NCBI GenBank assembly: GCA_964350265.1
Contig: CAYGJZ010000002.1
Location: 41,007-105,006, forward strand
Origin: an uncultured Gammaproteobacteria bacterium
GTDB taxonomy: Bacteria; Pseudomonadota; Gammaproteobacteria; Arenicellales; CAJQKF01
DNA length: 64,000 nt
Reading direction: 5' to 3'
Shown here: positions 21,530 through 51,072 of the stretch, one piece after another
Position numbering within the stretch: the stretch's first letter is position 1
Layout: each line of letters opens with the position of its first letter
The notes under the pieces: generated by a model
Seen by the model: the letters and a program-made list of their open reading frames with translations, nothing else
What the model was told of the DNA's origin: nothing
Database searches by the model: none
Position numbers and translations under genes: made by a program

Positions 21530-21560
21530 GGCCGGGGGACGAGCTCCTGTATATGTTTTC

Positions 21561-21737: not shown

Positions 21738-21770
21738 TAACATGTTATATATCATCCTTAAAAATGTTAA
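21738..21770. promoter_or_regulatory. Exact TAACATGTTA (copy 4) plus AATGTTAA half-site upstream of the cupin-rhodanese gene
   Basis: The 10-mer is at 21738-21747 and the extra half-site at 21763-21770. They lie about 150 nt upstream of ATG 21897. Confidence 0.55.
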
Positions 21771-21896
21771 ACTCGCGGACGCATTCCGCAAGTACATCGG
21801 CGAGCCTGGCTGCTGCCGTTGGCCAGGCCGCGTCGATCCCCGGAGATGCCCGTTTCGCGGGCGTGGCCGGTCGCACACCAGTGAGGGGTCCTACCC

Positions 21897-24098
21897 ATGA
21901 CGAGTACATCTGAGTCCGTTGTCGAGCAACGTACCGCCGCGGTCGCCACCACCATGGCCCGCATCGGGGACCTGGTGCAGGAGAGCGGCATCAACCGCGG
22001 TACGCTGGAGGAGATCAAGCAGGTGCTGATCGATCTCGCCATGCAGACCGGCCTGTTTCCCAAGGCCCACTACCCGGTTCCTGCCACGGGCAAGGGATTC
22101 ATCTATCGCTTGTTCGACGATCTGGACGCCGGGCTGGCGCTGTACGCATCGGCAGGCGTCCCGGGCAAGTACCAGCCGCCACACAACCACACCACCTGGG
22201 CTGCCATCGCCGCGGTCTATGGCGACGAGCACAACGTGATGTACGAGCGCACCGACAACGGTGCCACCCCCGGCCACGGCAGCCTGCGCCGAAGTGGCGA
22301 GGTGATCGTCAGCCCGGGAACCGGGGTGGCACTGATGCCGGACGACTTTCACACCATCGAGGTCACCAGTGCCGAGCCTTCCCTGCACTTGCATGTCTAT
22401 GGTCGAAGCCTGGAGCGGCTCCCGGGGCGGATCTTCTTTCAAACTCCGGACAGTACAACCTATGCCACCTTTCCGGCCAATCCGAACATTCGTACCCCGG
22501 TGGTTACCCCGGCCGCACTTCGTTCTCTGATCCTGTCCGATGCCGAACTCGCCCTGCTCGACGTGCGCGAAGAACGTGCGTATTCCGAGGAGCACCTGCT
22601 GACCGCCACGTCGACCCCCTTGTCGACCCTGGAACTGCGCATTGCGGCTCTTGTGCCAGCCAGGAAAACCACGATCGTGTTGTGCGATGGCGGTGGCGAT
22701 CTGGCCAATCGGGCAGCCACTTTGCTGGCGCGCCAGGGCTACCGCAACCTGTCCGTGCTCGATGGTGGCGTCAACGGCTGGAAGCGCGCCGGCTACGCCG
22801 TCTACGCGGGCATGCACGTGCCCAGCAAGGCCTTTGGAGAGTTCGTCGAGGACAAGGAGAAGACGCCGTCCATCCAGGCCGAAGACCTGGCCGGGCAGCT
22901 CGCCGCGGGCGAGCACTGGACGGTGATCGATTGCCGGCCGCGGGAGGAATACGCACGTGGCACGTTGCCTGGCGCTATCAACTGCCCGGGTGTCGAAGTG
23001 CTGACCGGGGTGCTGGACGCCGTGTCCTCGTCGTCGACGCGGGTGGCCGTGCACTGCGCCGGACGTACCCGTGGCATCCTTGCCGCCCAGACTCTCCTCG
23101 ATGGTGGAATTCCGAATCCGGTGCACGTACTCGAGGATGGCACCATGGGCTGGCACCTGGCCGGACACGATCTCGAGGAGGGCCGAACAAAGATCGCTTC
23201 CTTTCCGTCCACCGGCGCGCGCCGGGACGGCGGAGCGGCCTCGGCGGCCATCGGCCGCCGCGGGCAGGTGCGTTACCTGGACGAGGCCTCGTTGCTGGCC
23301 ATGCAGGAGGAGGCGTCTCGGCATACGCTGTACCTGGTGGACGTGCGATCCTCGGAGGAGTATGTCACCGGGCATCGGAGAGGCGCGCTCTCCATCCCCG
23401 GCGGCCAGTTGCTGCAAGCCACCGAGTCCTACCTGGCAGTGCGCAACGCGCGCATCGTGCTGACCGACGACGACGGCATCCGCGCCACCATCACCGCCGC
23501 GTGGCTCAACCGCATGGGCTACCCGCACGTGTACGTACTCGGTGCGCCGCGCCATGCCGACTGGCTGGAGACGGGACCAGAGCCCAGGTCGGTGCTGGGT
23601 CTTGGCCACTACCGCGTTGCCTGGGTTCGCGCCGATGCACTGGCCGAGGCGTTGGCGGATGGCGCGGATGGCATCGAGGTGATCGATCTCGCCCCGGGAC
23701 CGCAACACCTTTCCGGACACATACCCGGCGCGCGCTTCGCCGCGCGTGACGGCCTCGCGGCGGTGCTCAATGCCATGCCCAGGCGTGGATTGACGGTGCT
23801 CACCTCCGAGGACGGCGTGCTGGCCTCCATGGTGGCCGCCGAAATCGACGCCACGGTGACAGGCGATGTCCAGGTGTTGCTGGGCGGAACACGGGCCTGG
23901 CAGGCCGCGGGCCATTCCCTTGCCAGCGGCGACGAAGGCGCGTTGTCGCCGATGAACGACGTCTACCAGAAACCCTATCACCGGGCAGGCGGTCGCGAGG
24001 ACGCCATGCAAGCCTACCTGGCATGGGAAAAAGGGCTGTTGCGCGCGATTCATGACGCCGGCGACGACGAACTGCTGCCGTTCCTGCGCGAAGACTGA
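21897..24098 (+). CDS. Cysteine-dioxygenase-like cupin fused to tandem rhodanese domains
   Basis: The N-terminal ~190 aa is a cupin with PPHNHTTW...DFHTIE...HLHVYG. The remainder is paralogous to the 5404-7083 protein, including the active-site loop CAGRTRG and the YLAWE tail. Confidence 0.85.
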   Translation: MTSTSESVVEQRTAAVATTMARIGDLVQESGINRGTLEEIKQVLIDLAMQTGLFPKAHYPVPATGKGFIYRLFDDLDAGLALYASAGVPGKYQPPHNHTTWAAIAAVYGDEHNVMYERTDNGATPGHGSLRRSGEVIVSPGTGVALMPDDFHTIEVTSAEPSLHLHVYGRSLERLPGRIFFQTPDSTTYATFPANPNIRTPVVTPAALRSLILSDAELALLDVREERAYSEEHLLTATSTPLSTLELRIAALVPARKTTIVLCDGGGDLANRAATLLARQGYRNLSVLDGGVNGWKRAGYAVYAGMHVPSKAFGEFVEDKEKTPSIQAEDLAGQLAAGEHWTVIDCRPREEYARGTLPGAINCPGVEVLTGVLDAVSSSSTRVAVHCAGRTRGILAAQTLLDGGIPNPVHVLEDGTMGWHLAGHDLEEGRTKIASFPSTGARRDGGAASAAIGRRGQVRYLDEASLLAMQEEASRHTLYLVDVRSSEEYVTGHRRGALSIPGGQLLQATESYLAVRNARIVLTDDDGIRATITAAWLNRMGYPHVYVLGAPRHADWLETGPEPRSVLGLGHYRVAWVRADALAEALADGADGIEVIDLAPGPQHLSGHIPGARFAARDGLAAVLNAMPRRGLTVLTSEDGVLASMVAAEIDATVTGDVQVLLGGTRAWQAAGHSLASGDEGALSPMNDVYQKPYHRAGGREDAMQAYLAWEKGLLRAIHDAGDDELLPFLRED

Positions 24099-24105
24099 GC
24101 GGCAC

Positions 24106-24147
24106 GGGCAATACTCCGTGTCGTTGAACACGGACAGCGTGTTGCCC
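24106..24147 (+). terminator. Nested hairpin after the cupin-rhodanese gene
   Basis: The outer arms are GGGCAA and TTGCCC. The inner stem is TCCGTGT / ACACGGA with loop cgttga. There is no U-tract. Confidence 0.3.
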
Positions 24148-24335
24148 TGCGCGGCACGCGTTGGCCTGCGGGCCTAGCGCGTACAGGGCAAGCGCACGCC
24201 GCCGTTCTGCGCGCGACAGGGCAGCGCCAGCAGGGGTCGACGGTGGTCAACCCGGTCGGGTCTGCTGCACCGTGCCGGCGATCATCGTGCTAGGGTTGTC
24301 TGCCGCGGTGACTGGCACCCGGCAGCGGAGCGTGC

Positions 24336-37589: not shown

Positions 37590-39053
37590 TCAGGAAAGGT
37601 CGACGATGACGGACTTGGACTGCAGGTAGCCGTCCAGCCCCTCGCTGCCCAGTTCGCGGCCGTAGCCACTTTGCTTGTAGCCGCCGAAGGGCGTTTCCAG
37701 GCCGACCACGGCCGGCGTGTTGACGCTGACGGTGCCGGCCTCGATGGCGGCGGCAACCCGGTGGGCACGGCCGATGTCCCGGGTCCAGACGGTGGCGGCA
37801 AGGCCGTAGTCGCTGTCGTTGGCGACGGCCACCGCCTCTTCCTCGTCGGCCACGCGGATCACCGCCAGCACCGGGCCGAATATCTCCTCGCGGGCAAAGG
37901 ACATGTCGTTGCTGGCGCGGTCGAACACGGTGGCCTCGACGTAGGGCCCGGCGAAGTCGGCGGCGCGGCCGCCGCAGATGCGCTCGGCACCTTCGGCGAC
38001 GGCGCTGTCGCAGTACTCGACGATGCGGCGCTGGGCGTTGTGGTCGATGACCGGGCCAAGCTGGGTCTGCGGGTCGAGCACGTCGCCGATCTTCAGCGCG
38101 GTGGCGGCCCTGGCCAGCTTCTCCACCAGTTCGTCGGCCACCGACTCGGTGACGATGCAACGGGTGCGGGCGGCACATTTCTGGCCGGCATGGCCGAACA
38201 CGCCGGCCGCGGTGCCGGCGGCGGCACGGTCGATGTCGGCGTCGTCGAAGACCAGGTTGGGGGACTTGCCGCCCAGTTCCAGGGTGACCCGCTTGACGCC
38301 CTCGGCGGCGGCGGCGGCCACTTGGCAGCCGATCTCGGTGGAGCCGGTGAAGCTGACCTTGGCCACCTTTGGATGACGCACCAGGTGCATGCCGATCTCG
38401 CTGCCGGCGCCGGGCACCACGTTGAGCACGCCGGCGGGCAGGCCGGCGGCGCAGGCCAGTTCGGCGAACAGCAGCGCGGTCAGCGGCGTGGCGCTGGCCG
38501 GCTTGACCACGATGACGTTGCCGGTGGCCAGTGCCGGGGCGACCTTCCACAGCATCAGCAGCAGGGGAAAGTTCCACGGCACGATGGCGGCGCAGACGCC
38601 GATGGGTTCGCGTCGCACGTAGCGGTGCTGGCTGTCAGCGGAGGCCACCAGCCGGCCGTCGATGCGGTCGGCATAGCCGGCATACCAGCGCAGCACGCCC
38701 ACCGAGGCGAGGATGTCGATGCGGGCATCGGACATCGGCTTGCCCGCGTGCACCGCCTCCAGGGCGATCCAGCGGTCGGCGTCCGCCTCCAGCGCATTGG
38801 CGATGTCGTGCAGGATGCGGGCGCGCTGCGCAGGCGGCGTCGCCCGCCAGCGCGGCCAGGCCTGGCTGGCGCTGTCCACCGCGGCATCGATGGTGGCGGT
38901 GTCGGCGGCGCCGACGTCGGCGAGGGTGTCCCCGGATACCTTGCCGAGTACCGCCAGGGTGCCTGGCGCGGCCTGCTGCTTGCCGTCGAGGAATACCGAG
39001 CCGGTGTTGTAGCGGTCAATCAGCGGCGAGAACAGGGATGCATCAATGGTCAT
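37590..39053 (-). CDS. NAD(P)-dependent aldehyde dehydrogenase
   Basis: Characteristic blocks are VPWNFPLL, FTGSTEIG, ELGGKSP, the catalytic-Cys motif GQKCAA and EEIFGPV. Confidence 0.9.
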   Translation of the reverse strand: MTIDASLFSPLIDRYNTGSVFLDGKQQAAPGTLAVLGKVSGDTLADVGAADTATIDAAVDSASQAWPRWRATPPAQRARILHDIANALEADADRWIALEAVHAGKPMSDARIDILASVGVLRWYAGYADRIDGRLVASADSQHRYVRREPIGVCAAIVPWNFPLLLMLWKVAPALATGNVIVVKPASATPLTALLFAELACAAGLPAGVLNVVPGAGSEIGMHLVRHPKVAKVSFTGSTEIGCQVAAAAAEGVKRVTLELGGKSPNLVFDDADIDRAAAGTAAGVFGHAGQKCAARTRCIVTESVADELVEKLARAATALKIGDVLDPQTQLGPVIDHNAQRRIVEYCDSAVAEGAERICGGRAADFAGPYVEATVFDRASNDMSFAREEIFGPVLAVIRVADEEEAVAVANDSDYGLAATVWTRDIGRAHRVAAAIEAGTVSVNTPAVVGLETPFGGYKQSGYGRELGSEGLDGYLQSKSVIVDLS

Positions 39054-39075
39054 ACGGTGCGTTTCGTGTCGTGGG

Positions 39076-39336
39076 TTACAGTCGGTGCCTGCGAATCTTG
39101 TCGATCAGTGCGCGAACCACGGGCAGCGGACGGCAGTCGCCGAGCATGTCCAGGGCGGCTTCGCGGTGATCGTTGTTGCTGGCGAGCGAAGCCCGGTCCA
39201 GGTCCGGGTAGCCCTGCTGGTTCAGCGCTTCGATGACGATGCGCAGGATCTCGTCTTCCATCGAACCGTCGAAGGACAGTTCGACTTCGGGGAAGTTGCC
39301 TCCCAGGTCGGGGGGCGGTTGGCGGCTGTCGGTCAT
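39076..39336 (-). CDS. Small hypothetical protein (~86 aa)
   Basis: It occupies the gap between the TRAP and ALDH genes. I placed the start at ATG 39336 or 39348 because the ORF-track GTG at 39390 falls inside the 39371-39403 hairpin. There is no clear Shine-Dalgarno and I recognise no family. Confidence 0.4.
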   Translation of the reverse strand: MTDSRQPPPDLGGNFPEVELSFDGSMEDEILRIVIEALNQQGYPDLDRASLASNNDHREAALDMLGDCRPLPVVRALIDKIRRHRL

Positions 39337-39370
39337 GGGCGGGAACATCGCTGCGGGCGGGAATGGGAGC

Positions 39371-39403
39371 CTGGCTGGCGATCGCGGCACGATCGCCAGC
39401 CAG
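39371..39403 (-). other. 13-bp perfect hairpin directly after the TRAP binding-protein gene
   Basis: The arms are CTGGCTGGCGATC and GATCGCCAGCCAG with a 7-nt loop. On the transcribed strand it starts 11 nt after the stop codon. There is no U-tract. Confidence 0.5.
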
Positions 39404-39413
39404 GAAGCGGGGG

Positions 39414-40406
39414 TTACTCGATCTCGACGATGGCCTCGATGCGCTCCATGCCGCCGACCTTGTCGGCGTAGCTCTGCCAGAAGGAGGCCATGGCTTCCTG
39501 CCAGGCGGCGATGTCAGGCTGCACGACTTCCGCGCCGGCTTCCACCGTCTTCGCCAGGGAGGCGTCCTGTTCCGCCGAGGCCAGCTCGTTGAAGTAGGGG
39601 ATGGCCTCGTCCGCGGCTGCCTGCATCACTGCCTGCTGTTCGGCGGAGAGTCCTTCCCAGAAAGACTTGCTGAGGTACATCGCGCCCAGCGACCAGATGT
39701 GGTTGGTCTCGGTGAGGTAGGGCACCACCTCGAACAGCTTCAGCGCATGGTAGCCGGACTTGGTCATGTCCATGTAGTCGACCACGCCGGTCTGCAGCGC
39801 ATTGTAGGCCTCGGTGATCGGCACCGGGGTCGGGTTGGCACCCAGGGAACTCCACAGGTCGATGTGCAGCGGGCTTTGCAGCACGCGCATCTTCTTGCCG
39901 TCGACATCGGCCGGGACGCGGATCGGCTCCTTGCTGATCACGTGGCGTGAGCCGTAGACGATGAAGCCGAGCACCTTGAAGCCCTGGGCATCGTACAGCG
40001 CCTTGAACTCGTCACCGATGGGGCCGGTCATGGCCTTGTTGATGTGCTCCAGGTCGCGGAACATGAAGGGCATGTCGAACAGCGCGCCTTCCGGCACCCA
40101 GGTGGTCAGGTTGGCCAGCGTCGACAGGGCGCCCTGGATGGAGCCCAGGCGAATGCCCTCGGTGGTTTCCTTCTCGCCGCCGAGGGCGCCGTCGGTGACC
40201 ACCTTGACATCGAACTGCCCGGGCATCTTCTCGTTGACGATGTCGCTGAACTTGTACCAGATCTTCGACTGCGGCTTGTCCGGTCCGTAGATCACGGACA
40301 CGGTCAGCGTCTTCGGTGCCTGCGCCGCGGCGTGACCCGCCGCGGCCAGCCCGAGGGCGGCCACCGTGGCCAGTGCCACGGGCTTGAACCAGTTGGATTG
40401 CTTCAT
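39414..40406 (-). CDS. TRAP transporter substrate-binding protein (DctP family)
   Basis: A signal peptide is present (VALATVAALGLAAAGHAAA). The DctP-like blocks are GALGGEKE, FDMPFMFRD and LQTGVVD. Confidence 0.9.
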   Translation of the reverse strand: MKQSNWFKPVALATVAALGLAAAGHAAAQAPKTLTVSVIYGPDKPQSKIWYKFSDIVNEKMPGQFDVKVVTDGALGGEKETTEGIRLGSIQGALSTLANLTTWVPEGALFDMPFMFRDLEHINKAMTGPIGDEFKALYDAQGFKVLGFIVYGSRHVISKEPIRVPADVDGKKMRVLQSPLHIDLWSSLGANPTPVPITEAYNALQTGVVDYMDMTKSGYHALKLFEVVPYLTETNHIWSLGAMYLSKSFWEGLSAEQQAVMQAAADEAIPYFNELASAEQDASLAKTVEAGAEVVQPDIAAWQEAMASFWQSYADKVGGMERIEAIVEIE

Positions 40407-40473
40407 TTTCACGGTCAGTTCCTCTCTTGTCTTTTGATGGGTGTACAACGAAATCGAACTCGAATGAAACCGG

Positions 40474-42375
40474 TCAGCGGCCACCGATCAGCCAGCCGAG
40501 TCCCAGGGAAATAGCCGGTACGTAGGTGATGACCAGCAGGGCGGCAAACAAGGCCGCCAGCAACGGCAGCATGGCGCGAAACACGTCGTGCACCGGGGTG
40601 CGGGAAATCGACCCGGTGATGAATGCCAGCATGCCCACCGGCGGTGTCAGTCCGCCGAGCATCAGGTTGACCACCACCACGATGCCGAAGTGCACCGGGT
40701 CGATGCCGAGGCTGGTGACCAGCGGCATCAGCAGCGGGGTCAGGATCAGGATGGCGGCGCCGATGTCCAGGAACATGCCGAACAGCAGCATCAACATGTT
40801 GACCAGCAGCAGCACCACGTAGGGATTCTCCGACAGGGTGGCCACGCTGACGGTGAGCAACTGCGGGATCTGTTCGGTCACCAGCACGAAGGCGAAGGGG
40901 GCCGCGGCACCGATCAACAGCCCGACCATGGCGGCTTCCACCGCCGCGCCGCGCAGGGTCTGCCACAGGTCGCGGACACCGTAGCTGCGGTAGACGAACA
41001 TGCCCAGCACCCAGCCGTAGACCACTGCCAGCACGCCGGCCTCGGTGGGCGTGACCACGCCGAAACGGATGCCGCCGAGGATCAGCACGGCCAGCCCGAG
41101 CACCGGCAGCGCCTGGCCGAAGGCACGCCAGCGCTCGCCGCTGCCGGCCTTCTCGTTGGCGGTGCCAAAGCCCTTGATGCGGGCAATGATGTACACGCAG
41201 ATCATCAGCGAGAAGATCATGAACAGTCCCGGCACCACCCCGGCCAGCCACAGGCTGCCCACCGACAGGTTGGCGGCGGCGGCAAGGATGAGCAGGGCGA
41301 TGGACGGCGGGATCACGTTCGGCACCGTGGCCGAAGCCGCGGTCACCGCGCAGGAGAAGGCAGGCGAGTAGCCGTGGCGGACCATCTGCGGCACCAGCAG
41401 CTTGGTGCCCAGCGCGGCCTCGGAGTAGCTCGAGCCGGAGATGCCCGCGTACAGGCCGCTGGAAACCACGTTGACCTGGGCGAAGCCGCCGCGCATGTGT
41501 CCCACCAGCTTGAAGGCGAAGTCCATCAGGCGCCGGGTCAGGCCGCCGGCATTCATCAGCGCGCCGGCAGTGATGAAGAAGGGGATGGCCAGCAACAGGA
41601 ACTTGGTGGCGCCGTTGACCATGTTCTGTACCACCGCCGCTGGTGGCATCAGGCCGCCGGCCAGGTTGGCGACGAAGGCGGCGAAGATCATGGCGAAGGC
41701 CACCGGCGAGCCGAGCGCCATGGCGACCACGAAGGACAGCGCCATGACCAGGCCCGGGTCGCTGCCGGCAATGGACAGCGTGCCGGTGACGTTGACCACG
41801 TAGTACAGGGCCGCGCCGACGATGATGGCCAGCGGGCCGCGCCAGGGTTCACGACCTTCGTCGACGCCGCGCAGGGCGAGGTAGACCAGGCCGAGGACAC
41901 AGGCCACCGGGATCAGCGAGAACTTCACCCAGGTGGGCAGGCCGAGGGCGTAGTTGACGCCGCCGACCATCTCGATGATGGTCATGCCGCCGAACAGCAG
42001 CATGATGGTGGTGTAGGCGATGATGACGTCGCTGGCGAGTTCGGCCACGGTGCGGGCGCGCGCTGGCAGCCGGTCCACGAACAGGCCGATGGACAGGTGC
42101 ATGCGGGTGCGGTGGGCGAGGGGAACGGCGAGGAAGATCACCGCCACGAACAGCCACTGTGCCGCATCCGCGGCCCAGGTGATGGAATTGTTGAAGCCGT
42201 AGCGACCAATGACGTTGGCGAAGATGATGGCGATCAGCGCGATCAATGCCAGCGTGACCGCGGCACCGATGACATGGTCGAGCAGGCCAAGAAAGCGCTG
42301 CGCAAGGCCGCGCACGCCGTCGGCGCGGGGCGCCTCGGGGGATACGCCAAGACGGGGTTCAGCGACCGACGGCAT
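40474..42375 (-). CDS. TRAP transporter fused small/large permease (DctQ-DctM)
   Basis: The N-terminal ~170 aa is a DctQ-like 4-TM module fused to a DctM-like 12-TM module. The start is ATG 42375, 7 nt after GAGGAGGA. It overlaps the stop of the GGT-like gene. Confidence 0.9.
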   Translation of the reverse strand: MPSVAEPRLGVSPEAPRADGVRGLAQRFLGLLDHVIGAAVTLALIALIAIIFANVIGRYGFNNSITWAADAAQWLFVAVIFLAVPLAHRTRMHLSIGLFVDRLPARARTVAELASDVIIAYTTIMLLFGGMTIIEMVGGVNYALGLPTWVKFSLIPVACVLGLVYLALRGVDEGREPWRGPLAIIVGAALYYVVNVTGTLSIAGSDPGLVMALSFVVAMALGSPVAFAMIFAAFVANLAGGLMPPAAVVQNMVNGATKFLLLAIPFFITAGALMNAGGLTRRLMDFAFKLVGHMRGGFAQVNVVSSGLYAGISGSSYSEAALGTKLLVPQMVRHGYSPAFSCAVTAASATVPNVIPPSIALLILAAAANLSVGSLWLAGVVPGLFMIFSLMICVYIIARIKGFGTANEKAGSGERWRAFGQALPVLGLAVLILGGIRFGVVTPTEAGVLAVVYGWVLGMFVYRSYGVRDLWQTLRGAAVEAAMVGLLIGAAAPFAFVLVTEQIPQLLTVSVATLSENPYVVLLLVNMLMLLFGMFLDIGAAILILTPLLMPLVTSLGIDPVHFGIVVVVNLMLGGLTPPVGMLAFITGSISRTPVHDVFRAMLPLLAALFAALLVITYVPAISLGLGWLIGGR

Positions 42376-44203
42376 AACCGATTCCTCCTCGGGGGTTGGC
42401 AGCGGCGCGAATGCGACCGTCGCGTTCACGCGCAATGGCCGTCAGGCGGCCCTCGGACCATGGTCCGTTCTCGTTGACCTCGTGGCCACGCCGTTTCAGC
42501 TCGTCGATGACCTCCGCGCCGAAGCGGCTTTCCACCACCAGCTTGCCCGGCGAAGCATGCCGGGGATAGAAGGAGTTCGGCCAGTGCTCGGAATGAAAGG
42601 CCGGTGCCTCGATGGCCTCCTGCAGGCCGGTGCCATGCAGCAGGTGGCGCAACAGGAAGCTGGTCTGCCACTGGTCCTGCTGGTCGCCACCGGGGGTGCC
42701 GCAGGCGAGGTAGCCACGGCCGTCGCGGAGCACCAGTGTCGGCGTCAGGGTGGTGCGCGGACGGGTGCCGGGCACCAGGCTGGACGGCAGTTCACCGTCC
42801 AGCCAGGTCATCTGTGCGCGGGTGCCGAGGGGAAAGCCGAGGGCGGCGATCACCGGCGAGGACTGCAGCCAGCCACCGGACGGGGTCGCCGAGACCATGT
42901 GCCCGGCCTCGTCGACCACGTCGATGTGGCAGGTGTCGCCGGCCACGCTGGCCAGGTAGCCAGGCGCGGCCACCTCGCCCACGGTGGGCTCGCCGCCGCC
43001 GTAGGCGGACAGCAGGCCACCCTCGCGCACGCGGGCGGTGGCGGCGGCGTAGTCGAAGGCCGGCGCCGGCCCGTCGGCGTCGCCCGGACGCCAGCGGTTG
43101 TCGGCGGTATCGCCGATCAGCGCCCGGCGGACCTCGTTGTACTCCCGCGACAGCAGTCGGTCCATCGGCACCGTGCCGTGCAGCGGGTCGCCGTACCAGG
43201 TCTCGCGGTCGGCGAAGGCGAGTTTCATTGCCTCGGTCACCCGGTGCACGAACTCGGCGCCGTTGGGGTCCAGTGCGGACATTTCCTCGGCATCGAGCAG
43301 GGCCAGGGTCTGCAGCAGGGCCGGTCCCTGGCTCCAGGCCGGGCACTTGGCCACCTGCCAGCCGGCATAGTCGAGGCTGACCGGGGACTCCACCGAGGCC
43401 GACCAGTTGGCCAGGTCATCGCCGCGCAGCAGGGCCGGGTGCTCCTGGCCGGTCACGTCCATGGCCACCGCGTGCTGGCAGAAGCGGTCGATTTCCTCGG
43501 CGACGAAGCCGTTGGACCAGGCCCTGCGGGCGGCGTCGATGCGTGCTTCGCGGTTGCCGCCGGCTTCGCGGGAAACCTGGACCAGGCGTCGGAAGGTGTT
43601 GGCCAGCGGCGTGTTGACCAGCAACGAGTCAACGGCGGGGACGCAGCCGCCAGGCAGGAACAGCGCCGCGGAGTCCGGCCAGTACTTGCGGAACAGGCCT
43701 TCCGCCGCCGCCAGCGTGTCGTGCAGGCGCGGGCTGACCGGCACGCCGTGCTCGGCGTAGTGGATGGCGCACTCGAGCACGTCGCCGAGTTCCAGCGTGC
43801 CGTGGTCGCGCAGTACGCGCACCCAGCCATCGAAGGCCCCCGGCACCACCGCGGGAAGCAGTCCGGTGCCGGGCACCATGTCCAGGCCCAGGGCGTGGAA
43901 GCGTTCGCGGGTGGCGGCGGCGGGCACCGGGCCCTGGCCACACACCGACAGCGTCTCGCCGTTGTCGGCGCGGTGCAGCAGGATGGCCACGTCGCCGGCG
44001 GGGCCGTTCAGGTGCGGCGCCACCACCTGCAGCACGAAGCCCCCGGCCACTGCCGCGTCGAAGGCATTGCCGCCGCGTTCCAGGATGCGCATGGCGCAGG
44101 AACTGGCGATCCAGTGCGACGACGATACCGCGCCAAAGGTGCCGACGATTTCCGGCCTCGTAAGCTGCATCTGAACCTGTCCCATCCCGAAAAGCGGTTG
44201 CAT
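42359..44203 (-). CDS. Gamma-glutamyltransferase-family Ntn hydrolase, no signal peptide
   Basis: Characteristic blocks are GGNAFDAAVA, the autoprocessing region GDTCHIDVVD and GTPGGDQQ. The start is uncertain; in-frame ATGs lie at 44203, 44185 and 44170. Confidence 0.8.
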   Translation of the reverse strand: MQPLFGMGQVQMQLTRPEIVGTFGAVSSSHWIASSCAMRILERGGNAFDAAVAGGFVLQVVAPHLNGPAGDVAILLHRADNGETLSVCGQGPVPAAATRERFHALGLDMVPGTGLLPAVVPGAFDGWVRVLRDHGTLELGDVLECAIHYAEHGVPVSPRLHDTLAAAEGLFRKYWPDSAALFLPGGCVPAVDSLLVNTPLANTFRRLVQVSREAGGNREARIDAARRAWSNGFVAEEIDRFCQHAVAMDVTGQEHPALLRGDDLANWSASVESPVSLDYAGWQVAKCPAWSQGPALLQTLALLDAEEMSALDPNGAEFVHRVTEAMKLAFADRETWYGDPLHGTVPMDRLLSREYNEVRRALIGDTADNRWRPGDADGPAPAFDYAAATARVREGGLLSAYGGGEPTVGEVAAPGYLASVAGDTCHIDVVDEAGHMVSATPSGGWLQSSPVIAALGFPLGTRAQMTWLDGELPSSLVPGTRPRTTLTPTLVLRDGRGYLACGTPGGDQQDQWQTSFLLRHLLHGTGLQEAIEAPAFHSEHWPNSFYPRHASPGKLVVESRFGAEVIDELKRRGHEVNENGPWSEGRLTAIARERDGRIRAAANPRGGIGYAVGR

Positions 44204-44205
44204 GA

Positions 44206-44249
44206 GAACCAATCAACTATAATGGTTCGCAATTATGGAACCATTATAG
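44206..44249. promoter_or_regulatory. GAACCAAT plus 12-bp-arm inverted repeat CTATAATGGTTC-N9-GAACCATTATAG
   Basis: The perfect inverted repeat is at 44217-44249 and an extra GAACCAAT half-site at 44206-44213. It lies immediately upstream of the GGT-like gene. The half-sites are FadR-type TGGT/ACCA. Confidence 0.6.
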
Positions 44250-44305
44250 GCACAGCCTCGAAGACGAGTCAAAGCGTTCGCGGAGGTGTCCGGAGCGGCC
44301 TGCCG

Positions 44306-44965
44306 TCAGTCGACCAGCAGGTTGCCCTTGACCCGGGACAGGTGGTGCACGATGGCTTGTCTTGCCTGCTCCGCATCGCGTGCACAGAAGGCTTCGACGA
44401 TGCGCTCGTGGTCGGCCTGGTAGGCGCGGCGACGGTCGTCGGTGAGCCCGCGGCGACGCAGTGCGCCCCATTCGTCGGAGCGGCGGATGCGATGCATGCC
44501 CTCGACGATGCCGATCAGGTACTGGTTCTTGCTGGCGCGGGCAATGGCACGGTGAAAGCGGTTGTCCCACTGTTCGAACTCGGCCATGGAACGGGCCTCG
44601 CCACCGCGCATTACCAGCGTGCGTATGGCATCGAGCTCGGCGATGGAGGCGCGTGCGACGACCAGCCGAGCCAGCAGCGGTTCGATCAGCAGGCGGGCTT
44701 CCATCATCTCCTCCGGGTTGACCACGCTGACGTCGACGCCGGTGCGGGCATCGGCGGTGAGGTTGTCGGCGACGAAGGTGCCGCGGCCGACATGACGCAC
44801 GATCAGCCCGCGGCTCTCCAGGTTCCCGAGCACCCGCCGCACGGTGTTTCGACCGACGCCGTAGCGTTGCGCGAGCTCTCGTTCGGTGGGCAGCCGGGCG
44901 CCGGATTGCCAGTCCCCGGAGTCCAGTTTCTCCTGCAGTGCGTGTAGTAGTAGCTCTGCGCTCAT
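44306..44965 (-). CDS. GntR-family regulator, FadR/FCD subfamily
   Basis: The wHTH reads LPTERELAQRYGVGRNTVRRVLGNLESRGLI. The FCD domain reads FHRAIARASKNQYL. The start is ATG 44965 (MSAELLL). Confidence 0.85.
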   Translation of the reverse strand: MSAELLLHALQEKLDSGDWQSGARLPTERELAQRYGVGRNTVRRVLGNLESRGLIVRHVGRGTFVADNLTADARTGVDVSVVNPEEMMEARLLIEPLLARLVVARASIAELDAIRTLVMRGGEARSMAEFEQWDNRFHRAIARASKNQYLIGIVEGMHRIRRSDEWGALRRRGLTDDRRRAYQADHERIVEAFCARDAEQARQAIVHHLSRVKGNLLVD

Positions 44966-45001: not shown

Positions 45002-45020
45002 GAACCAATGCGGAACCAAT
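45002..45020. promoter_or_regulatory. Direct repeat GAACCAAT-N3-GAACCAAT in the gntR / acyl-CoA synthetase divergent region
   Basis: Two exact 8-mers are spaced 11 bp start to start. The half-site is the same as at 44206-44249. Confidence 0.5.
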
Positions 45021-45039
45021 ATACCAAAGCTGCGCGACC

Positions 45040-46752
45040 ATGGGTAGGGTCAGTTCATCGCCTTGCGGACGCCACGGGTGGACGCCGGTGAGCGGGCCCG
45101 TGGATCCGTCCGCGTCGCAGCGCGTGGCCCTGTTCGAAACCGACCTGCCGCGCCGCGCCGCCAACCACGCCGCGCTGACGCCGCTGTCCTTTCTTCGTCG
45201 CTCGGCCGCGGTCTACCCGGACAAGGTCGCGGTCATCCACGGCCCGTTGCAGTACCGCTACGACGAACTGTACCGCCGCTGCCGCGCACTGGCCTCGGCG
45301 CTGTCTCGCGCCGGCGTACGTCCGGGGGAGGCGGTGTCGGTGCTGGCCCCCAACGTGCCGCCGTTGCTGGAAGCCCACTACGGCGTGGCCATGGCCGGCG
45401 CCATTCTCAACGCCATCAACACCCGGCTCGACGCGGCCTCCATCGGCTTCATCCTGGAACATGCGAAGACCCGGGTGTTGATCGTCGACGCCGCGTGGTC
45501 GCAGGTGGCTGCCGAGGCGATCACGGCAAGCGGCGCCTCGCCGACGGTGGTGGTCTACCACGATCCCACCGCGGCGGACGAGGCCGGGCAGCCCGGCGCG
45601 CTCGATGGCGAGGACTACGAGGCGTTTCTTGCCGGCGGCGATCCGGACTGTGCCTGGCAGGGGCCGGACGACGAGTGGCAGGCGATCAGCCTGAACTACA
45701 CCTCCGGCACCACCGGCAATCCCAAGGGCGTGGTCTACAGCCACCGCGGCGCCTGCCTGAACGCCCTGGGCAACGTGATGACCTTCGGCCTGGATGCGCG
45801 CTCGGTCTACCTGTGGACGCTGCCCATGTTCCACTGCAACGGCTGGACCTACACCTGGGCGGTGACCGCCGCCGGTGGTACCCACGTCTGCCTGCGCCGG
45901 GTGGAGCGCGACGCGGTGCTGGACAGCATCCGCGCCCACCGGGTGTCGCACATGTGCGGCGCGCCGATCATTCTCAACATGCTGGCCCGCGGCGAAGGTG
46001 ACAGCGAACCGTTGCCGCACACGGTGGAAGTCGCCACCGGCGGGGCGGCGCCGCCGACCACGGTGATCCGCGCCCTCGAGCAGCAGGGCTTTCGCGTCAC
46101 CCACCTCTACGGCCTGACCGAGAGCTACGGTCCGGCCACGGTCTGCGTGTGGCAGCCGGCCTGGGACGACCTCGACCTGGCCGAGCGCGGCGTGCACATG
46201 GCGCGGCAGGGCGTCAGCCATGTCACCGCCGACGAGGCCATCGTCGCCGATCCGCAAAGCGGTGTCGCGGTGCCCCGGGACGGAGTCACCATGGGCGAGA
46301 TCCTGCTGCGTGGCAATACCGTGATGAAGGGCTACCTGAAGAATCCCGAGGCCACCGACGAGGCCCTGCGCGACGGCTGGTTCCGTACCGGCGACCTGGC
46401 GGTGTGGCACGCCGACGGCTACATCGAGATCAAGGACCGTTCCAAGGACATCATCATTTCCGGCGGTGAGAACATCTCCAGCCTGGAGGTGGAGGAAGTG
46501 CTCTACGCCCACCCCGCGGTGCTGGAGGCGGCGGTGGTGGCACGGCCGGACGAGAAGTGGGGGGAGACACCCTGTGCCTTCGTCACCCTGCGCGCGGGGG
46601 CCGAGGTCGACGACGCCGGCATCATCGCCTGGTGCCGCGAACGCATGGCCCACTTCAAGGCACCGAAGACGGTGATCTTCGGTGAGCTGCCGAAGACCTC
46701 CACGGGCAAGATCCAGAAACACGTGCTGCGGGAACGGGCGGCGGCATGCTGA
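45040..46752 (+). CDS. AMP-dependent acyl-CoA synthetase (LvaE-like position)
   Basis: Characteristic blocks are YTSGTTGNPKGV, LPMFHCNGW, YGLTESYG, GWFRTGD and KTSTGKIQK. The start is uncertain (ATG 45040 or GTG 45124). Confidence 0.9.
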   Translation: MGRVSSSPCGRHGWTPVSGPVDPSASQRVALFETDLPRRAANHAALTPLSFLRRSAAVYPDKVAVIHGPLQYRYDELYRRCRALASALSRAGVRPGEAVSVLAPNVPPLLEAHYGVAMAGAILNAINTRLDAASIGFILEHAKTRVLIVDAAWSQVAAEAITASGASPTVVVYHDPTAADEAGQPGALDGEDYEAFLAGGDPDCAWQGPDDEWQAISLNYTSGTTGNPKGVVYSHRGACLNALGNVMTFGLDARSVYLWTLPMFHCNGWTYTWAVTAAGGTHVCLRRVERDAVLDSIRAHRVSHMCGAPIILNMLARGEGDSEPLPHTVEVATGGAAPPTTVIRALEQQGFRVTHLYGLTESYGPATVCVWQPAWDDLDLAERGVHMARQGVSHVTADEAIVADPQSGVAVPRDGVTMGEILLRGNTVMKGYLKNPEATDEALRDGWFRTGDLAVWHADGYIEIKDRSKDIIISGGENISSLEVEEVLYAHPAVLEAAVVARPDEKWGETPCAFVTLRAGAEVDDAGIIAWCRERMAHFKAPKTVIFGELPKTSTGKIQKHVLRERAAAC

Positions 46753-46772
46753 GCAGCGGCGGGAGCACGCAG

Positions 46773-47540
46773 ATGGCCAACGGCTTCGACATCCACGGCC
46801 GGCACGTGCTGGTCACCGGCGCCTCCAGCGGTCTTGGCCGCTACTTCGCGCGCATGCTGGCCGCCGACGGTGCCCTGGTGACCCTGGCGGCGCGGCGCGA
46901 AGCCGCCTTGCAGGCGGTGGTGGACGAGATCGTCGCCGATGGTGGCGAGGCACGCTCGGTGGTCATGGACGTGACCAGCGAGGCGTCGGTGCAGGCAGCC
47001 TTCGCCGCCGCCGAGGTCGATGGTCGACCGCCGTCCATCGTCATCAACAACGCCGGCGTGGCGCGGACCAACCGGGCGCTGGAGACCAGCGCCGAGGAGT
47101 TCGACGGCGTGCTCGACACCAACCTGCGCGGTGCCTTCCTGGTGGCGCGCGAGGCGGCCGCGCGGATGGTCGCGGCGGACATCGGCGGCAGCATCGTCAA
47201 CATCGCATCCATTCTCGGTCTCGGCGTGGCCGGCGCGGTGATGCCCTACGCGGTGTCCAAGGCGGGCCTGGTGCACATGACCCGTTCGCTGGCGCTGGAA
47301 TGGGCCCGGCACGGCATCCGCGTCAATGCCCTGGCGCCGGGCTACGTCGAGACCGACCTGAACGCGGACTTCCTCGCCTCCGAGGCCGGAGGCGCGCTGC
47401 GCAAGCGCATACCCATGCGACGCTTCGGCCGGCTCGAGGAGCTGGCCGGGCCGTTGCGACTGCTGGTTTCCGACGCCGGCGCCTACATGACCGGCAGCGT
47501 GGTGACCGTGGATGGCGGTCACCTGGTCGCCTCGCTGTAG
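46773..47540 (+). CDS. Classical SDR oxidoreductase (LvaD-like position)
   Basis: Characteristic blocks are VTGASSGLG, NNAG, NIASILG and the canonical dyad YAVSK. The start is ATG 46773, 7 nt after GGGAG. The ORF-track start is 46746. Confidence 0.85.
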   Translation: MANGFDIHGRHVLVTGASSGLGRYFARMLAADGALVTLAARREAALQAVVDEIVADGGEARSVVMDVTSEASVQAAFAAAEVDGRPPSIVINNAGVARTNRALETSAEEFDGVLDTNLRGAFLVAREAAARMVAADIGGSIVNIASILGLGVAGAVMPYAVSKAGLVHMTRSLALEWARHGIRVNALAPGYVETDLNADFLASEAGGALRKRIPMRRFGRLEELAGPLRLLVSDAGAYMTGSVVTVDGGHLVASL

Positions 47541-47572
47541 ACGGCGTCGCCCACCCTTCACGGAGTACCCCG

Positions 47573-48772
47573 ATGGATTTTTCACTGCCCCCCCGGCTGG
47601 AATCGTTGCGCGGCGATGTTCGCGCCTTTGTCGACCAGCACATCCTGCCGCTGGAAGCCGACCCGGGCAATTACGACGAACACGAGAACATTGCCGCCGA
47701 CGTGCTCGATCGCGTGCGTGGCGAGGTCAAGGCAGCCGGCCTGTGGGCGCCGCAGTTGCCGCGGGAAGACGGCGGTCTCGGCCTCGACACCTTGTCCATG
47801 GCCGTGCTGTACGAGGAGATGGGGCGTTCCATCTTCGGCCCGGTGTGCTTCAACTGCGCGGCGCCGGACGACGGCAACATGATCCTGCTCTCGCGGGTGG
47901 CGAGCGAGGCGCAGAAGGCGCGCTGGCTGGCACCCATTGCCGACGGCCGGGTGCGCTCCGCCTTCGCCATGACCGAGCCCATGCCCGGTTCCGGCTCCGA
48001 CCCCTCGGCGATGCTGACCCGGGCCACCCGGGTTGGTGACGGCTGGCGCATCGACGGCCACAAGTGGTTCATCACCGGGGCCGGGGTGGCCAGCCACTTC
48101 ATCCTTCTTGCGCGCACCTCGGATGATCCACGCAAGGGACTGACTGCCTTCCTGTTCGACCGCGAACAGCCGGGCTGGGAAGTGGTGCGGCGCATTCCGA
48201 TCATGGGGCCGGAAGAACATGGCGGGCACTGCGAGCTGCGTTTCGACGGTCTGGAAGTATCGGACGAGAACGTGCTGATGAACGTCGGCGATGGCCTCAA
48301 GGTCACCCAGATCCGTCTCGGCACCGCGCGCCTGACCCACTGCATGCGCTGGCTGGGCATGGCCAAGCGGGCGCTGGAAATCGCCGGCGACTACGTGCGT
48401 GAACGACGCAGTTTCGGCATGACGCTGGCCGAGCACGAGGGCGTGCAGTGGATGCTGGGCGAGGCGGCGATGGAGATCGAGACCGGACGGCTGCTTACCG
48501 CCAAGGCCGCCTGCATGCTGGATCGCGGCGACTTCGCCAAGCGCGAGGTGTCGATGGCCAAGGTGCAGGTGTCCGAAACCCTGCACAAGGCCATCGATAC
48601 CGCCATCCAGCTGTGCGGTGCGCGTGGCTATTCCCGTGACACGCCGCTGGAATGGATGTACCGCTATGCCCGCCAGGCCCGCCTGGTGGATGGCGCCTCG
48701 GAGGTGCACAAGATGGTGCTGGCGCAGACCTTCCTCGCCGAGGGCAACGACTTCTGGAGGTGGACCCCTTGA
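47573..48772 (+). CDS. Acyl-CoA dehydrogenase family protein (LvaC-like position)
   Basis: The ACAD N/M/C domain pattern is present (SAFAMTEP, GHKWFITGA, RSFG, ARGYSRDTPLEWMYRYAR...DGASEVH). Confidence 0.9.
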   Translation: MDFSLPPRLESLRGDVRAFVDQHILPLEADPGNYDEHENIAADVLDRVRGEVKAAGLWAPQLPREDGGLGLDTLSMAVLYEEMGRSIFGPVCFNCAAPDDGNMILLSRVASEAQKARWLAPIADGRVRSAFAMTEPMPGSGSDPSAMLTRATRVGDGWRIDGHKWFITGAGVASHFILLARTSDDPRKGLTAFLFDREQPGWEVVRRIPIMGPEEHGGHCELRFDGLEVSDENVLMNVGDGLKVTQIRLGTARLTHCMRWLGMAKRALEIAGDYVRERRSFGMTLAEHEGVQWMLGEAAMEIETGRLLTAKAACMLDRGDFAKREVSMAKVQVSETLHKAIDTAIQLCGARGYSRDTPLEWMYRYARQARLVDGASEVHKMVLAQTFLAEGNDFWRWTP

Positions 48773-49785
48773 GCGAAGCGCAGTACGACGCCCTGGCCGA
48801 CTGGCTGCGCGGTGCCAGCGGGGCACGCGCGGCGACGGTGCATGAAGGTCGCCGCCTCGGTGGCGGTGCCATCCAGGACAACCGCGCGCTCACCGTCGAG
48901 TTCGACGGTGGCGACCTGCCGGGGCGCCAGTCGCTGGTGCTGCGGCGTTCCAATCCCGGCACCGTGGAAGCCAGCCATGACCGCGCCACCGAGTTCGCCC
49001 TGCTGACCGCGGCCCATGCCGCCGGGGTCAGCGTGCCCGAGCCGCTGTACCTGTGCGAGGACGAGTCGGTGTTCGACGGCGCCTTCTTCGTCATGCGCCA
49101 GGTGCCCGGCACCGGTCTCGGGCCGAAGGTGGTCAAGGACACCTCCCTCGGCGGCGACCGCGATCGCCTGGCCGTGGTGCTGGCAGAAGAATTGGCGCGC
49201 ATCCACGGCATCACCCCGGCGGACGGCACGCTGTCGATGCTGGCGCCACCCCCCGACGACCCGGCGCTGGCCCTGGTGGGCTGCTACCGCCGCTGGCTGG
49301 ACGAGCTGCAGGCCCGGCGGCCGGTGCTGGAGTGGGCCATTGACTGGCTGACCCGCCATGCACCGTCGCCAACGGACGTGGTGCTGTGCCACCGCGACTT
49401 CCGCACCGGCAACTACATGGTGGACGAGTCGGGCCTGACGGCGGTGCTGGACTGGGAGTTCGCCGGCTGGGGTGATCCGATGGAGGACCTCGGCTGGTTC
49501 ATGAGTCGCTTCTGGCGCTTCGGCGCCGACCATCTCGCCGCCGGCGGCATTGCCGACGGCAAGGTCTTCATCGATGCCTATGCCCGTGCCGCGAAGCGCA
49601 CGGTGGACCCCGAACGGCTGCGCTACTACGAGGTCATGGCCAACCTGCGCTGGGCGGTGATCGCGTTGCAGCAATGCCATCGCTTCGTGTCCGGCGCCGA
49701 GGCCGGCCTGGAACTGGCACTGATCGGTCGACGGGTACCGGAGATGGAAATGGAAATACTGGAGCTGACGGAGGCAAGGCCATGA
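48769..49785 (+). CDS. APH-type phosphotransferase (LvaA-like position)
   Basis: The kinase catalytic loop is LCHRDFRTGNYMV and the DxE block is VLDWEFAGWGDP. The start is TTG and overlaps the ACAD stop by 4 nt. Confidence 0.85.
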   Translation: MSEAQYDALADWLRGASGARAATVHEGRRLGGGAIQDNRALTVEFDGGDLPGRQSLVLRRSNPGTVEASHDRATEFALLTAAHAAGVSVPEPLYLCEDESVFDGAFFVMRQVPGTGLGPKVVKDTSLGGDRDRLAVVLAEELARIHGITPADGTLSMLAPPPDDPALALVGCYRRWLDELQARRPVLEWAIDWLTRHAPSPTDVVLCHRDFRTGNYMVDESGLTAVLDWEFAGWGDPMEDLGWFMSRFWRFGADHLAAGGIADGKVFIDAYARAAKRTVDPERLRYYEVMANLRWAVIALQQCHRFVSGAEAGLELALIGRRVPEMEMEILELTEARP

Positions 49786-50156
49786 AGCTTGCGCCGGACA
49801 TTCTTGCCCTGCTGGAAGCCACCCGCACCACGCTGGTGGAGCGGGTTGCCCCGGCCCTGCGTGGCGGTGAACGCTACGAGGCGCTGCTGGCCGCCAACGC
49901 CCTGGCCACCGCGGTGCGCGAGCTGGCGGTGGATGCCGAAGACGACGAGCGGGAGCGCGACAACATTCTCTCATTGCTCGGCGGGAGCACCGGGGAGGGC
50001 AGTCTCGACGATGCCAGCCGCGCACTGGCCGAAGCCATCCGTGCCGGTGCCTTCGCCGAGCCGGCCCGGGCCAGGGCGCTGCACGCCTTGCTGCGCGCAT
50101 CCACCGCCCGCCTGCTGGCGCAGACCAACCCGGTGGTGGCCGCCAAGTACCGCTGA
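49782..50156 (+). CDS. Small helical protein (~124 aa) in the LvaB-like position
   Basis: An ATGA overlap joins it to the phosphotransferase stop. The composition is Ala/Leu/Arg-rich and helical. I cannot name a family with confidence. Confidence 0.55.
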   Translation: MKLAPDILALLEATRTTLVERVAPALRGGERYEALLAANALATAVRELAVDAEDDERERDNILSLLGGSTGEGSLDDASRALAEAIRAGAFAEPARARALHALLRASTARLLAQTNPVVAAKYR

Positions 50157-50184: not shown

Positions 50185-51072
50185 TCAGGCGAGCTTCTCG
50201 CCGAAGAAGGCCACGGTGCGTTCCCACGCCAGCTTCGCCGCGTCCTCGTTGTAGCGCGGCGTGGAGTTGTTGTGGAAGCCGTGGCGGGTGCCCGGGTAGA
50301 GGTGGTGCTGGTATTCCTTGCCGTGTTCCTTGAGTGCGGCCTCGAAGTCCGGCCACATGGCATTGATGCGCGGATCGTCCTCGGCGGCCTGGATCATCAG
50401 CGGGGCCTGGATCTTCGCCACCTGGTCGGCGGCCGGCGCGGCGCCGTAGAAGGGCACGCCCGCGGCCAGGTCCCCGCCCATCTCCACCGCCAGGAAGTTG
50501 GTGGTGCCGCCGCCCCAGCAGAATCCCACCGAGCCGAGCTTGCCGCTGGACAGGGCATGGGACTGGACCAGCCGGGCGCTGTTCAGCATGTCCTGCTTCA
50601 GCTTGTCCTGGTCGAGGCCTTTCTGCAGCTCGCGACCATCGTCGTCGTTGCCCGGGTAGCCACCCACCGGGGCGAGGCCGTCCGGTGCCAGTGCCAGGAA
50701 GCCCTCCACAGCGAAGCGGCGGGCGACGTCCTCGATGTAGGGGTTCAGGCCGCGATTCTCGTGGATGACGATCACCGCGGGGAACGGGCCGTCGCCGCTG
50801 GGCTGCACCAGGTAGCCACGCATTTCGCCGCTGCTGCCGCCGGGAGAGTCGTAGTCGATGTAGGTGGCCTTGATGCGCTCGTCGGTGAACGAGACCATCT
50901 GCGCCTCGGCATAGCGTGGCAGCATGGCCTGGGCAAGGGCCAGCCCGGTGGCACCGGCCACCGACAGCGCGCTGGCGCGGGAGAGGAACATGCGTCGGTC
51001 GATGAAACCGTGGCAGTACTCGTCGTACAACTCGTAGACCTTGCGTTCGAGGTCCTGGTGGGTCGTCGTCAT
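50185..51072 (-). CDS. Dienelactone hydrolase family protein with Tat-like signal
   Basis: The twin-arginine region reads IDRRMFLSRASALSVAGATGLALAQA. The DLH blocks are VIVIHENRGL and GSVGFCWGG. Confidence 0.85.
   Translation of the reverse strand: MTTTHQDLERKVYELYDEYCHGFIDRRMFLSRASALSVAGATGLALAQAMLPRYAEAQMVSFTDERIKATYIDYDSPGGSSGEMRGYLVQPSGDGPFPAVIVIHENRGLNPYIEDVARRFAVEGFLALAPDGLAPVGGYPGNDDDGRELQKGLDQDKLKQDMLNSARLVQSHALSSGKLGSVGFCWGGGTTNFLAVEMGGDLAAGVPFYGAAPAADQVAKIQAPLMIQAAEDDPRINAMWPDFEAALKEHGKEYQHHLYPGTRHGFHNNSTPRYNEDAAKLAWERTVAFFGEKLA

Follow-up and report, generated by a model that had tools for sequence, protein, structure and literature searches.

The DNA analyzed here is a stretch of 64,000 nucleotides from an uncultured Gammaproteobacteria bacterium (contig CAYGJZ010000002.1, assembly GCA_964350265.1), hereafter called the window, to which all positions refer. 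Five successive genes on its + strand (45040-50156) encode an acyl-CoA synthetase (ACS), a classical short-chain dehydrogenase/reductase (SDR), an acyl-CoA dehydrogenase (ACAD), an APH-type kinase and a protein of 124 amino acids with a DUF6285 domain. These proteins are homologues of LvaE, LvaD, LvaC, LvaA and LvaB, respectively, the components of the levulinate pathway of Pseudomonas putida. The G+C content of the window is about 68%, so the lists of open reading frames (ORFs) are crowded and the genes were fixed by translation, inspection of the junctions and domain scans. This confirmed, with small coordinate corrections, the five genes and the families that an initial annotation had proposed from the letters alone (Table 1).

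Table 1. Features of the operon, its surroundings and a segment of deviating composition in the window.
Feature	Position	Strand	Evidence
Acyl-CoA synthetase (LvaE-type)	45040-46752	+	Pfam AMP-binding 6.4e-78; NCBIfam PRK08162 841 bits (cutoff 677)
Classical SDR (LvaD-type), putative 4-oxoacyl-CoA reductase	46746 (alternative ATG 46773)-47540	+	adh_short_C2 2.8e-56
ACAD (LvaC/ACAD10/11-type), putative 4-phosphoacyl-CoA phosphate-eliminating enzyme	47573-48772	+	Matches to all four ACAD domains
APH-fold kinase (LvaA-type), putative 4-hydroxyacyl-CoA kinase, TTG start	48769-49785	+	PF01636 1.3e-38
Small helical protein (LvaB-type), 124 aa, presumed kinase partner subunit, ATG start	49782-50156	+	PF19802 DUF6285, 58.1 bits (cutoff 28.1), 1.5e-15
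GntR + FCD (FadR-type ligand domain) regulator, divergent from the operon	44306-44965	-	Pfam GntR 5.9e-20, FCD 1.1e-22
Candidate GntR operator, motif AACCAATGCGGAACCAATATA	45003-45023	not assigned	Conserved in the intergenic region of L005
Sigma-70-like site TTGACT-18-TATAAT, between the GntR and GGT genes	44272-44243		11/12 positions
GGT-family protein	42359-44212	-	Pfam matches
Fused TRAP DctQM permease	40474-42435	-	Pfam matches
DctP binding protein	39414-40487	-	Pfam matches
Dienelactone-hydrolase/YghX-family hydrolase, convergent with the operon	50185-51072	-	NF041440 385 bits (below the cutoff of 460)
Segment of lower G+C	~9300-24300		G+C 0.59-0.65, flanks 0.66-0.73

The last three genes overlap by 4 nt each, as had been noticed before. 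The ACAD/kinase junction reads TTGA, with a GGAGG 8 nt 5' of the kinase TTG, and the kinase/small-protein junction reads ATGA, with a GGAGG 7 nt 5' of the ATG. The SDR and ACAD genes are separated by 32 nt, and the ACS and SDR genes either overlap by 7 nt or lie 20 nt apart, depending on the ATG chosen for the SDR. Two starts probably differ from those of the longest ORFs. The ACS probably begins at GTG 45100 or 45124 rather than at ATG 45040, since its homology to LvaE, to PRK08162 and to the relative in locus L005 (see below) begins only there. The GntR gene, whose ORF extends to TTG 45019, would rather begin at ATG 44965 (CAT at 44963-44965), because the resulting 219 aa is the length called in L005. 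With both starts corrected, the intergenic region would measure about 134 nt and not 20 nt. Terminator-like sites within the operon occurred at chance level only, and neither Rfam families nor tRNAs were found in the window. An ORF of 912 aa on the + strand (42209-44947, ATG start), which runs opposite to the GntR and GGT-family genes, has no Pfam or NCBIfam match and was rejected as a spurious long ORF of the kind typical of a high-GC genome; the GGT-family gene of the - strand is the real gene at this place.

The lvaRABCDEFG levulinate operon of P. putida KT2440 was reportedly described by Rand et al. in 2017. A published primer for PlvaA (PMC10164729) was tried as a probe for it, but the 23-mer had no match in genome or metagenome contigs, and a 20-mer of it gave two chance matches only (an AMP-ligase gene and a eukaryote-like contig) and was dropped. 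The lvaRABCDEFG copy on the Pseudomonas aeruginosa megaplasmid p12939-PER (NZ_MF344569.1; L003), found by tblastn of the window kinase against plasmids, was used instead and stands in for KT2440. In L003, a divergent PrpR-type regulator is followed by genes for a phosphotransferase, LvaB, an ACAD, an SDR, an ACS, a DUF485 protein and an acetate-type symporter, which is the published layout (PMC10164729, PMC9399607). The name lvaB is RefSeq's own in this record (8990-9346, "4-hydroxypentanoyl-CoA kinase subunit LvaB"). The biochemistry of LvaA, B, C, D and E is summarized in PMC6692424 and PMC9399607.

In pairwise BLASTP, all five window proteins aligned over their full length with their L003 counterparts: the ACS with LvaE (59% identity over 539 aa), the SDR with LvaD (56% over 251 aa), the ACAD with LvaC (44.5% over 393 aa), the kinase with LvaA (46% over 328 of 338 aa) and the small protein with LvaB (40% over 113 aa, E = 1e-13). 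Conversely, tblastn of LvaA-E against the whole window gave exactly these five contiguous genes as best matches; LvaD, for instance, is 56% identical to the SDR of the operon and at most 37% to the other SDRs of the window. This five-gene match exceeds what chance would give, judging from the alignments, and the complete LvaE/D/C/A/B-type set that had been proposed is thus borne out. The kinship also goes beyond the family level, since LvaA-E pick out these genes and LvaB, LvaE and LvaD share family models with them. At identities of 40-59%, functional orthology to the Lva proteins is likely.

The ACAD carries diagnostic residues. LvaC and ACAD10/ACAD11 are set apart from other ACADs by a catalytic Asp and by an Arg and an HCMR sequence on a phosphate-facing helix (Rashan et al., PMC12440821), and the supplement of Paquay et al. 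(PMC11342911) points to the same Arg and to a conserved Pro in an FNCxAPDTGNM motif. The window ACAD carries RLGTARLTHCMRW and VDGASEVH where LvaC of L003 carries RLAPARLTHCMRW and YDGPSEVH, and FNCAAPDDGNM is also present. In the alignment with mouse ACAD11, QIRLGTARLTHCMR of the window corresponds to QGRLGPGRIHHCMR and VDGASEVH to LADGPDEVH, so that QIRLGTARLTHCMR and VDGASEVH align to R626/H634/R637/D753; the Asp column is N in the D753N mutant chain 8v3v. Thermus medium-chain acyl-CoA dehydrogenase has the classical Glu in this catalytic column (YEGTNEIQ), where the window ACAD has Asp. Among ACADs encoded beside related kinases, HCMR is kept in 73 of 74 and DG[AP]SE[VI]H in 68 of 74. A PDB search agreed with this assignment: the window ACAD, with its signature residues, is closer to ACAD11 (2wbi, 2.6e-67; mouse 8v3u, 2.5e-65) than to classical ACADs, the best of which was 1ukw (9.8e-52, 179.3 bits). 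The proposed relationship of the kinase and ACAD to the domains fused in ACAD10/ACAD11 is therefore well founded, with ACAD11 as the top PDB match, the Asp/R...HCMR signature and a kinase match of 1.3e-13.

Regarding the kinase, its motifs H208-x-D210...N215 (HxDxxxxN) and D228-W-E230 are intact, and HRDFRTGN and LDWEF were invariant across 10 diverse homologues. Its solved relatives are the uncharacterized APH-fold proteins 9o56 and 3dxp and the kinase domain of ACAD11; it is far closer to LvaA than to any of them. The small protein belongs to the same family as LvaB of L003; LvaB is a protein of roughly 12 kDa, and that of L003 is itself a member of DUF6285 (PF19802, 4.8e-24). Searching a large protein collection with the single sequence returned near-identical matches only; a profile of six sequences was needed, and it retrieved Pseudomonas proteins named LvaB by RefSeq and UniRef, with 38-43% identity to the window protein. 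In a tblastn search of plasmids the small protein, too short and too diverged for this, gave no match. The helical nature suggested for it agrees with its AlphaFold2 model, a high-confidence prediction that is all-helical, with four long helices and a short C-terminal helix (pLDDT 90.8). According to PMC6692424, where it cites Rand 2017, LvaB co-purifies with LvaA and phosphorylation needs both, and the small protein may form such a complex with the window kinase. Pfam still labels PF19802 as DUF6285 although the RefSeq-named LvaB is a clear member, and NCBIfam holds no hidden Markov model for LvaA, LvaB or LvaC. The RefSeq name must therefore stem from another rule, and most LvaB homologues, including some from Pseudomonas, are annotated as "DUF6285" or, wrongly, as "acyl-CoA dehydrogenase".

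Concerning the two remaining enzymes, the NCBIfam model PRK08162 covers both the window ACS and LvaE of L003 (856 bits for the latter). PRK06949 is the best model for both the window SDR and LvaD, with the window SDR below its cutoff. The window SDR is a homologue of LvaD from end to end, and its predicted role is that of a 4-oxoacyl-CoA reductase. LvaE prefers C4-C6 acids, and the reduction of levulinyl-CoA by LvaD has been reported (PMC6692424).

To place the locus among its relatives, the GTDB species, each represented by one genome, were scanned for relatives of the kinase. At least 584 stretches encode such relatives; the best 80 were fetched, Lva-like genes were mapped on them by tblastn, and LvaR-like genes were sought within 9 kb. 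The order E-D-C-A-B was found in 17 of the 80 loci (B was detected in 11 of them and missed by tblastn in 6), C-A-B in 16, D-C-A-B in 13, and D-C-A-B-E, C-D-A-B and E-D-A(-B) in 5 each; C-A-B-D-E occurred twice, and the other 17 loci showed other orders, including truncated contigs. C-A-B, mostly with D and E, is a recurrent cluster, and LvaD-type SDRs (47-64% identity) adjoin the kinase or the ACAD in about 50 of the 80. Neither the order A-B-C-D-E nor an LvaR-like gene within 9 kb was found in any of these best 80 of at least 584 loci. The operon had been described as rearranged: it does read E-D-C-A-B and not A-B-C-D-E, but this arrangement is not special, being among the commonest, and it is the norm in the clade around the window. 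Annotated examples include the SDR-ACAD-kinase-DUF6285 genes of Paroceanicella profunda plasmid pD4M1C and the ACS-SDR-ACAD-kinase-DUF6285 genes of chromosome CP030885.1 (L007). Rand et al., as cited in PMC6692424, had already noted that lvaABCD has homologues in Alpha-, Beta- and Gammaproteobacteria.

Near-identical metagenome contigs carry the window arrangement. After these comes L005, whose kinase is 73% identical and in which DctP-DctQM-GGT-GntR genes are divergent from ACS-ACAD-kinase-DUF6285, and in L006 (65%) a GntR/FCD gene is divergent from ACAD-kinase-DUF6285 only. Moreover, 16 of the 24 related clusters that start with an LvaE-like synthetase (L007, L013, L014, L017, L019, L021, L022, L025, L026, L028, L046, L049, L053, L071, L075 and L079) have a DsbA-family gene divergent upstream, which is absent from the window. 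Its product carries a CPWC[FY][IV]GK motif, matches PF01323 in L007 and is not a transcription factor; it looks like a conserved, unexplained companion of the E-D-C-A-B cluster.

Since all five proteins are homologous to Lva proteins, and signature residues, gene junctions and synteny were observed as well, we consider it probable that the five genes form one transcription unit for an lva-type route. This route would turn a 4-oxo or 4-hydroxy carboxylic acid of short or medium chain length into an intermediate of beta-oxidation. The LvaE-like synthetase would form the CoA thioester, and the LvaD-like SDR would reduce the 4-oxoacyl-CoA to the 4-hydroxyacyl-CoA. The 4-hydroxyl group would then be phosphorylated at the expense of ATP by the LvaA-like APH kinase with its DUF6285/LvaB partner, and the LvaC/ACAD11-like FAD flavoprotein would eliminate the phosphate to give a 2-enoyl-CoA (or 3-hydroxyacyl-CoA). 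Our best guess for the substrate is levulinate and 4-hydroxyvalerate. Levulinate-like C5 acids are favored because the ACS and the SDR are highly identical to LvaE and LvaD; other 4-hydroxy acids could also serve, since D and E are modular around a constant C-A-B core and the ACAD is near ACAD11.

Some points weigh against this reading. The ACAD is only 44.5% identical to LvaC and scores close to ACAD11 (230.6 bits), so that its chain-length preference is unreadable from sequence. L005, the closest relative, does without the SDR, which would make the 4-oxo entry step accessory, and the core may then be one for 4-hydroxy acids of any kind. For the small protein, the PDB holds no sequence relative and Foldseek gave nothing significant (best E 2.3), so the fold yields no functional clue and the role presumed for it is taken from the literature. 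Furthermore, tblastn found no match to LvaR, LvaF or LvaG anywhere in the window, the divergent position of lvaR being held by the GntR/FCD gene, and the host organism is known solely from NCBI and metagenome contigs. LvaR, for its part, is a trait of the P. putida operon and not of the enzymology.

The divergent GntR/FCD protein is likely a local repressor that takes the place of the sigma-54 activator LvaR. It is 86% identical over 219 aa to the GntR of L005, which is encoded at the equivalent position, and between the two otherwise diverged intergenic regions only AACCAATG[C/T]GGAACCAATATA is conserved. The window version of this motif, AACCAATGCGGAACCAATATA, contains repeated ACCAA(T) half-sites and occurs once in the window, where 0.10 matches are expected by chance; in a search of 89 loci, only L005 had it at the equivalent position and 87 other loci were without it. 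No inverted repeat was found in the divergent intergenic region. The motif is a reasonable candidate for the GntR operator, and its retention together with that of the GntR in the nearest relative, added to adjacency, suggests that the operon is under GntR control. The initial annotation had asserted such control by a GntR instead of a sigma-54 activator. The divergent GntR/FCD gene and the absence of LvaR hold, whereas control is a deduction from adjacency, and the contrast with LvaR loses weight as no LvaR-type activator appears in any of the 80 loci either.

Downstream of the GntR gene, the - strand (37590-44272) encodes a GGT-family protein, a fused TRAP DctQM permease, a DctP protein and an aldehyde dehydrogenase, and a strong sigma-70-like site precedes the GGT gene (Table 1). 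Relative to the operon, DctQM lies 2.6 kb and DctP 4.6 kb upstream. The DctP-DctQM-GGT-GntR block also flanks the operon in L005, and because of this synteny the TRAP system may act as the importer, replacing LvaF/G. A link of the whole GGT/TRAP block (39414-44212) to the operon is possible, and the NCBIfam matches of the GGT, TRAP and aldehyde dehydrogenase neighbors gave no substrate clue. On the other side, the convergent YghX-family hydrolase gene begins 28 nt past the LvaB-like gene, and its product might act as a lactonase and so provide 4-hydroxy acids. The gene is kept next to the cluster only in near-identical contigs; L006 and L007 lack it there, and L005, whose contig stops about 0.6 kb beyond the cluster, is uninformative on this point. 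Far from the operon, the segment of lower G+C, in which no ORF passes GC3 (G+C at third codon positions) > 0.8, encodes an SDR, amidohydrolases, a zinc-dependent alcohol dehydrogenase, ABC-transporter parts and a luciferase-like monooxygenase, and may be a horizontally acquired catabolic island.

One alternative keeps the chemistry of the lva-type route and changes the physiological substrate, which would be another 4-hydroxy or 4-oxo acid, such as a gamma-lactone-derived 4-hydroxyalkanoate or a lipid-peroxidation product, imported by the TRAP system, with the SDR as a late add-on. The nearest relatives speak for it, one with ACS-ACAD-kinase-DUF6285 and another with ACAD-kinase-DUF6285 only, as do the C-A-B core alone in 16 of the best 80 loci and the fact that the closest solved relative of the ACAD is ACAD11, whose substrates are longer 4-hydroxyacyl-CoAs (PMC12440821). 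The transporter and GGT-family genes syntenic with the operon in L005 and the convergent hydrolase gene 28 nt downstream would also fit. However, the identities of the ACS to LvaE (59%) and of the SDR to LvaD (56%) are high for these families, LvaE has the C4-C6 preference mentioned above (PMC6692424), and the hydrolase and TRAP genes are not kept beside the cluster in more distant relatives. A substrate of this kind is a possibility to be taken seriously, although we hold it to be doubtful. A further reading, which we regard as unlikely, takes the lva module as layered: a universal ACAD-kinase-LvaB core would have gained a synthetase and a 4-oxo reductase as additions, and in this lineage a GntR/FCD repressor would control it and the TRAP/GGT block would serve for uptake. 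Its substrate would not be levulinate but, for instance, an acid with a 4-oxo or 4-hydroxy group set free from a lactone or from an amide or gamma-glutamyl conjugate. If this were true, the SDR, present here and missing in a relative with a 73% identical kinase, would reflect a recent extension of the substrate range, from 4-hydroxy acids to those with a 4-oxo group.

The SDR could also be a 3-hydroxyacyl-CoA/3-oxoacyl reductase for downstream beta-oxidation, the operon then being for 4-hydroxy acids only. Its generic NCBIfam matches are FabG-like, its best model PRK06949 stays below cutoff, and L005 manages without it. Nevertheless, LvaD, to which it is 56% identical from end to end and which is reported to reduce levulinyl-CoA (PMC6692424), gives the same NCBIfam profile pattern, and about 50 of the 80 loci have such an SDR beside the kinase or the ACAD, which makes this function very unlikely. 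As for a chance neighborhood of an aminoglycoside or other antibiotic kinase and an ordinary beta-oxidation ACAD, the NCBIfam models that the kinase weakly matches are those of APH(3') and thiamine kinase, and proteins of this kind are just "phosphotransferase family protein" in RefSeq. Yet none of these kinase matches comes anywhere near its cutoff, and the ACAD has no catalytic Glu but the phosphate-binding R...HCMR signature. All five Lva homologues adjoin one another, two 4-nt start/stop overlaps link the last three genes, and the adjacency recurs in dozens of species. This explanation is effectively refuted by the sequence evidence. The lva-type route thus remains the preferred reading of the operon.

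The locus is an ordinary, correctly recognized member of a known pathway, whose cluster, gene order and kinase partner are common in Proteobacteria. It adds one more uncultured carrier of an understood pathway, and its practical value is modest. The results support annotating phosphotransferase/DUF6285/acyl-CoA dehydrogenase triplets as 4-hydroxyacyl-CoA kinase (LvaA/LvaB) and phosphate-eliminating LvaC, and they present the P. putida gene order and sigma-54 regulator as the exception and not the rule in the clade around the window. Moreover, the candidate GntR/operator pair could offer an alternative biosensor for levulinate or 4-hydroxy acids.

Compared with lvaRABCDEFG of P. putida KT2440, as represented by L003, the window operon is alike in all five enzyme components, which are full-length homologues, in the LvaB gene directly 3' of the kinase gene and in an ACAD with the Asp and HCMR signature. 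It differs in its order, E-D-C-A-B against A-B-C-D-E in P. putida, in the divergent GntR/FCD in place of the sigma-54 PrpR-like LvaR, and in the TRAP system nearby, where P. putida has the DUF485/ActP pair (LvaF/G) at the end of the operon. The lva gene set also differs between species, as the levulinate cluster of Pseudomonas citronellolis LA18T shows (PMC6692424). That cluster shares LvaA-, LvaC- and LvaD-like genes and an acyl-CoA synthetase with the window, but it lacks lvaB, has a histidine-phosphatase gene, and its synthetase LvaE2 is phylogenetically distinct, whereas a true LvaB and a synthetase of the LvaE type are encoded in the window.

Mammalian ACAD10 and ACAD11 combine a 4-hydroxyacyl-CoA kinase and a phosphate-eliminating ACAD domain (PDB 8v3u, 2wbi), and the domains of ACAD10 can be complemented in vitro by bacterial kinase/ACAD pairs (PMC11342911). 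Among solved structures, this ACAD domain is nearest to the window ACAD, with R626/H634/R637/D753 in common, while the kinase domain is of the same APH fold family with weak similarity. The two domains are fused there and are encoded in the window by separate genes with a 4-nt overlap. Furthermore, the window has an LvaA-type kinase and, as its partner, a DUF6285 protein, a counterpart of which is reported in neither ACAD10/11 paper (LvaB is unmentioned in PMC11342911). The true nearest relatives, all uncharacterized, are the SDR-ACAD-kinase-DUF6285 clusters of Alpha- and Gammaproteobacteria (for example in Paroceanicella profunda pD4M1C, CP030885.1, Marinobacter, Tistlia and Kiloniellaceae), whose ACADs are 66-80% and kinases 46-57% identical to those of the window. 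They share the D-C-A-B core, often with E first, and differ in their regulators, many of the E-first clusters having the divergent DsbA-family gene and not a GntR.

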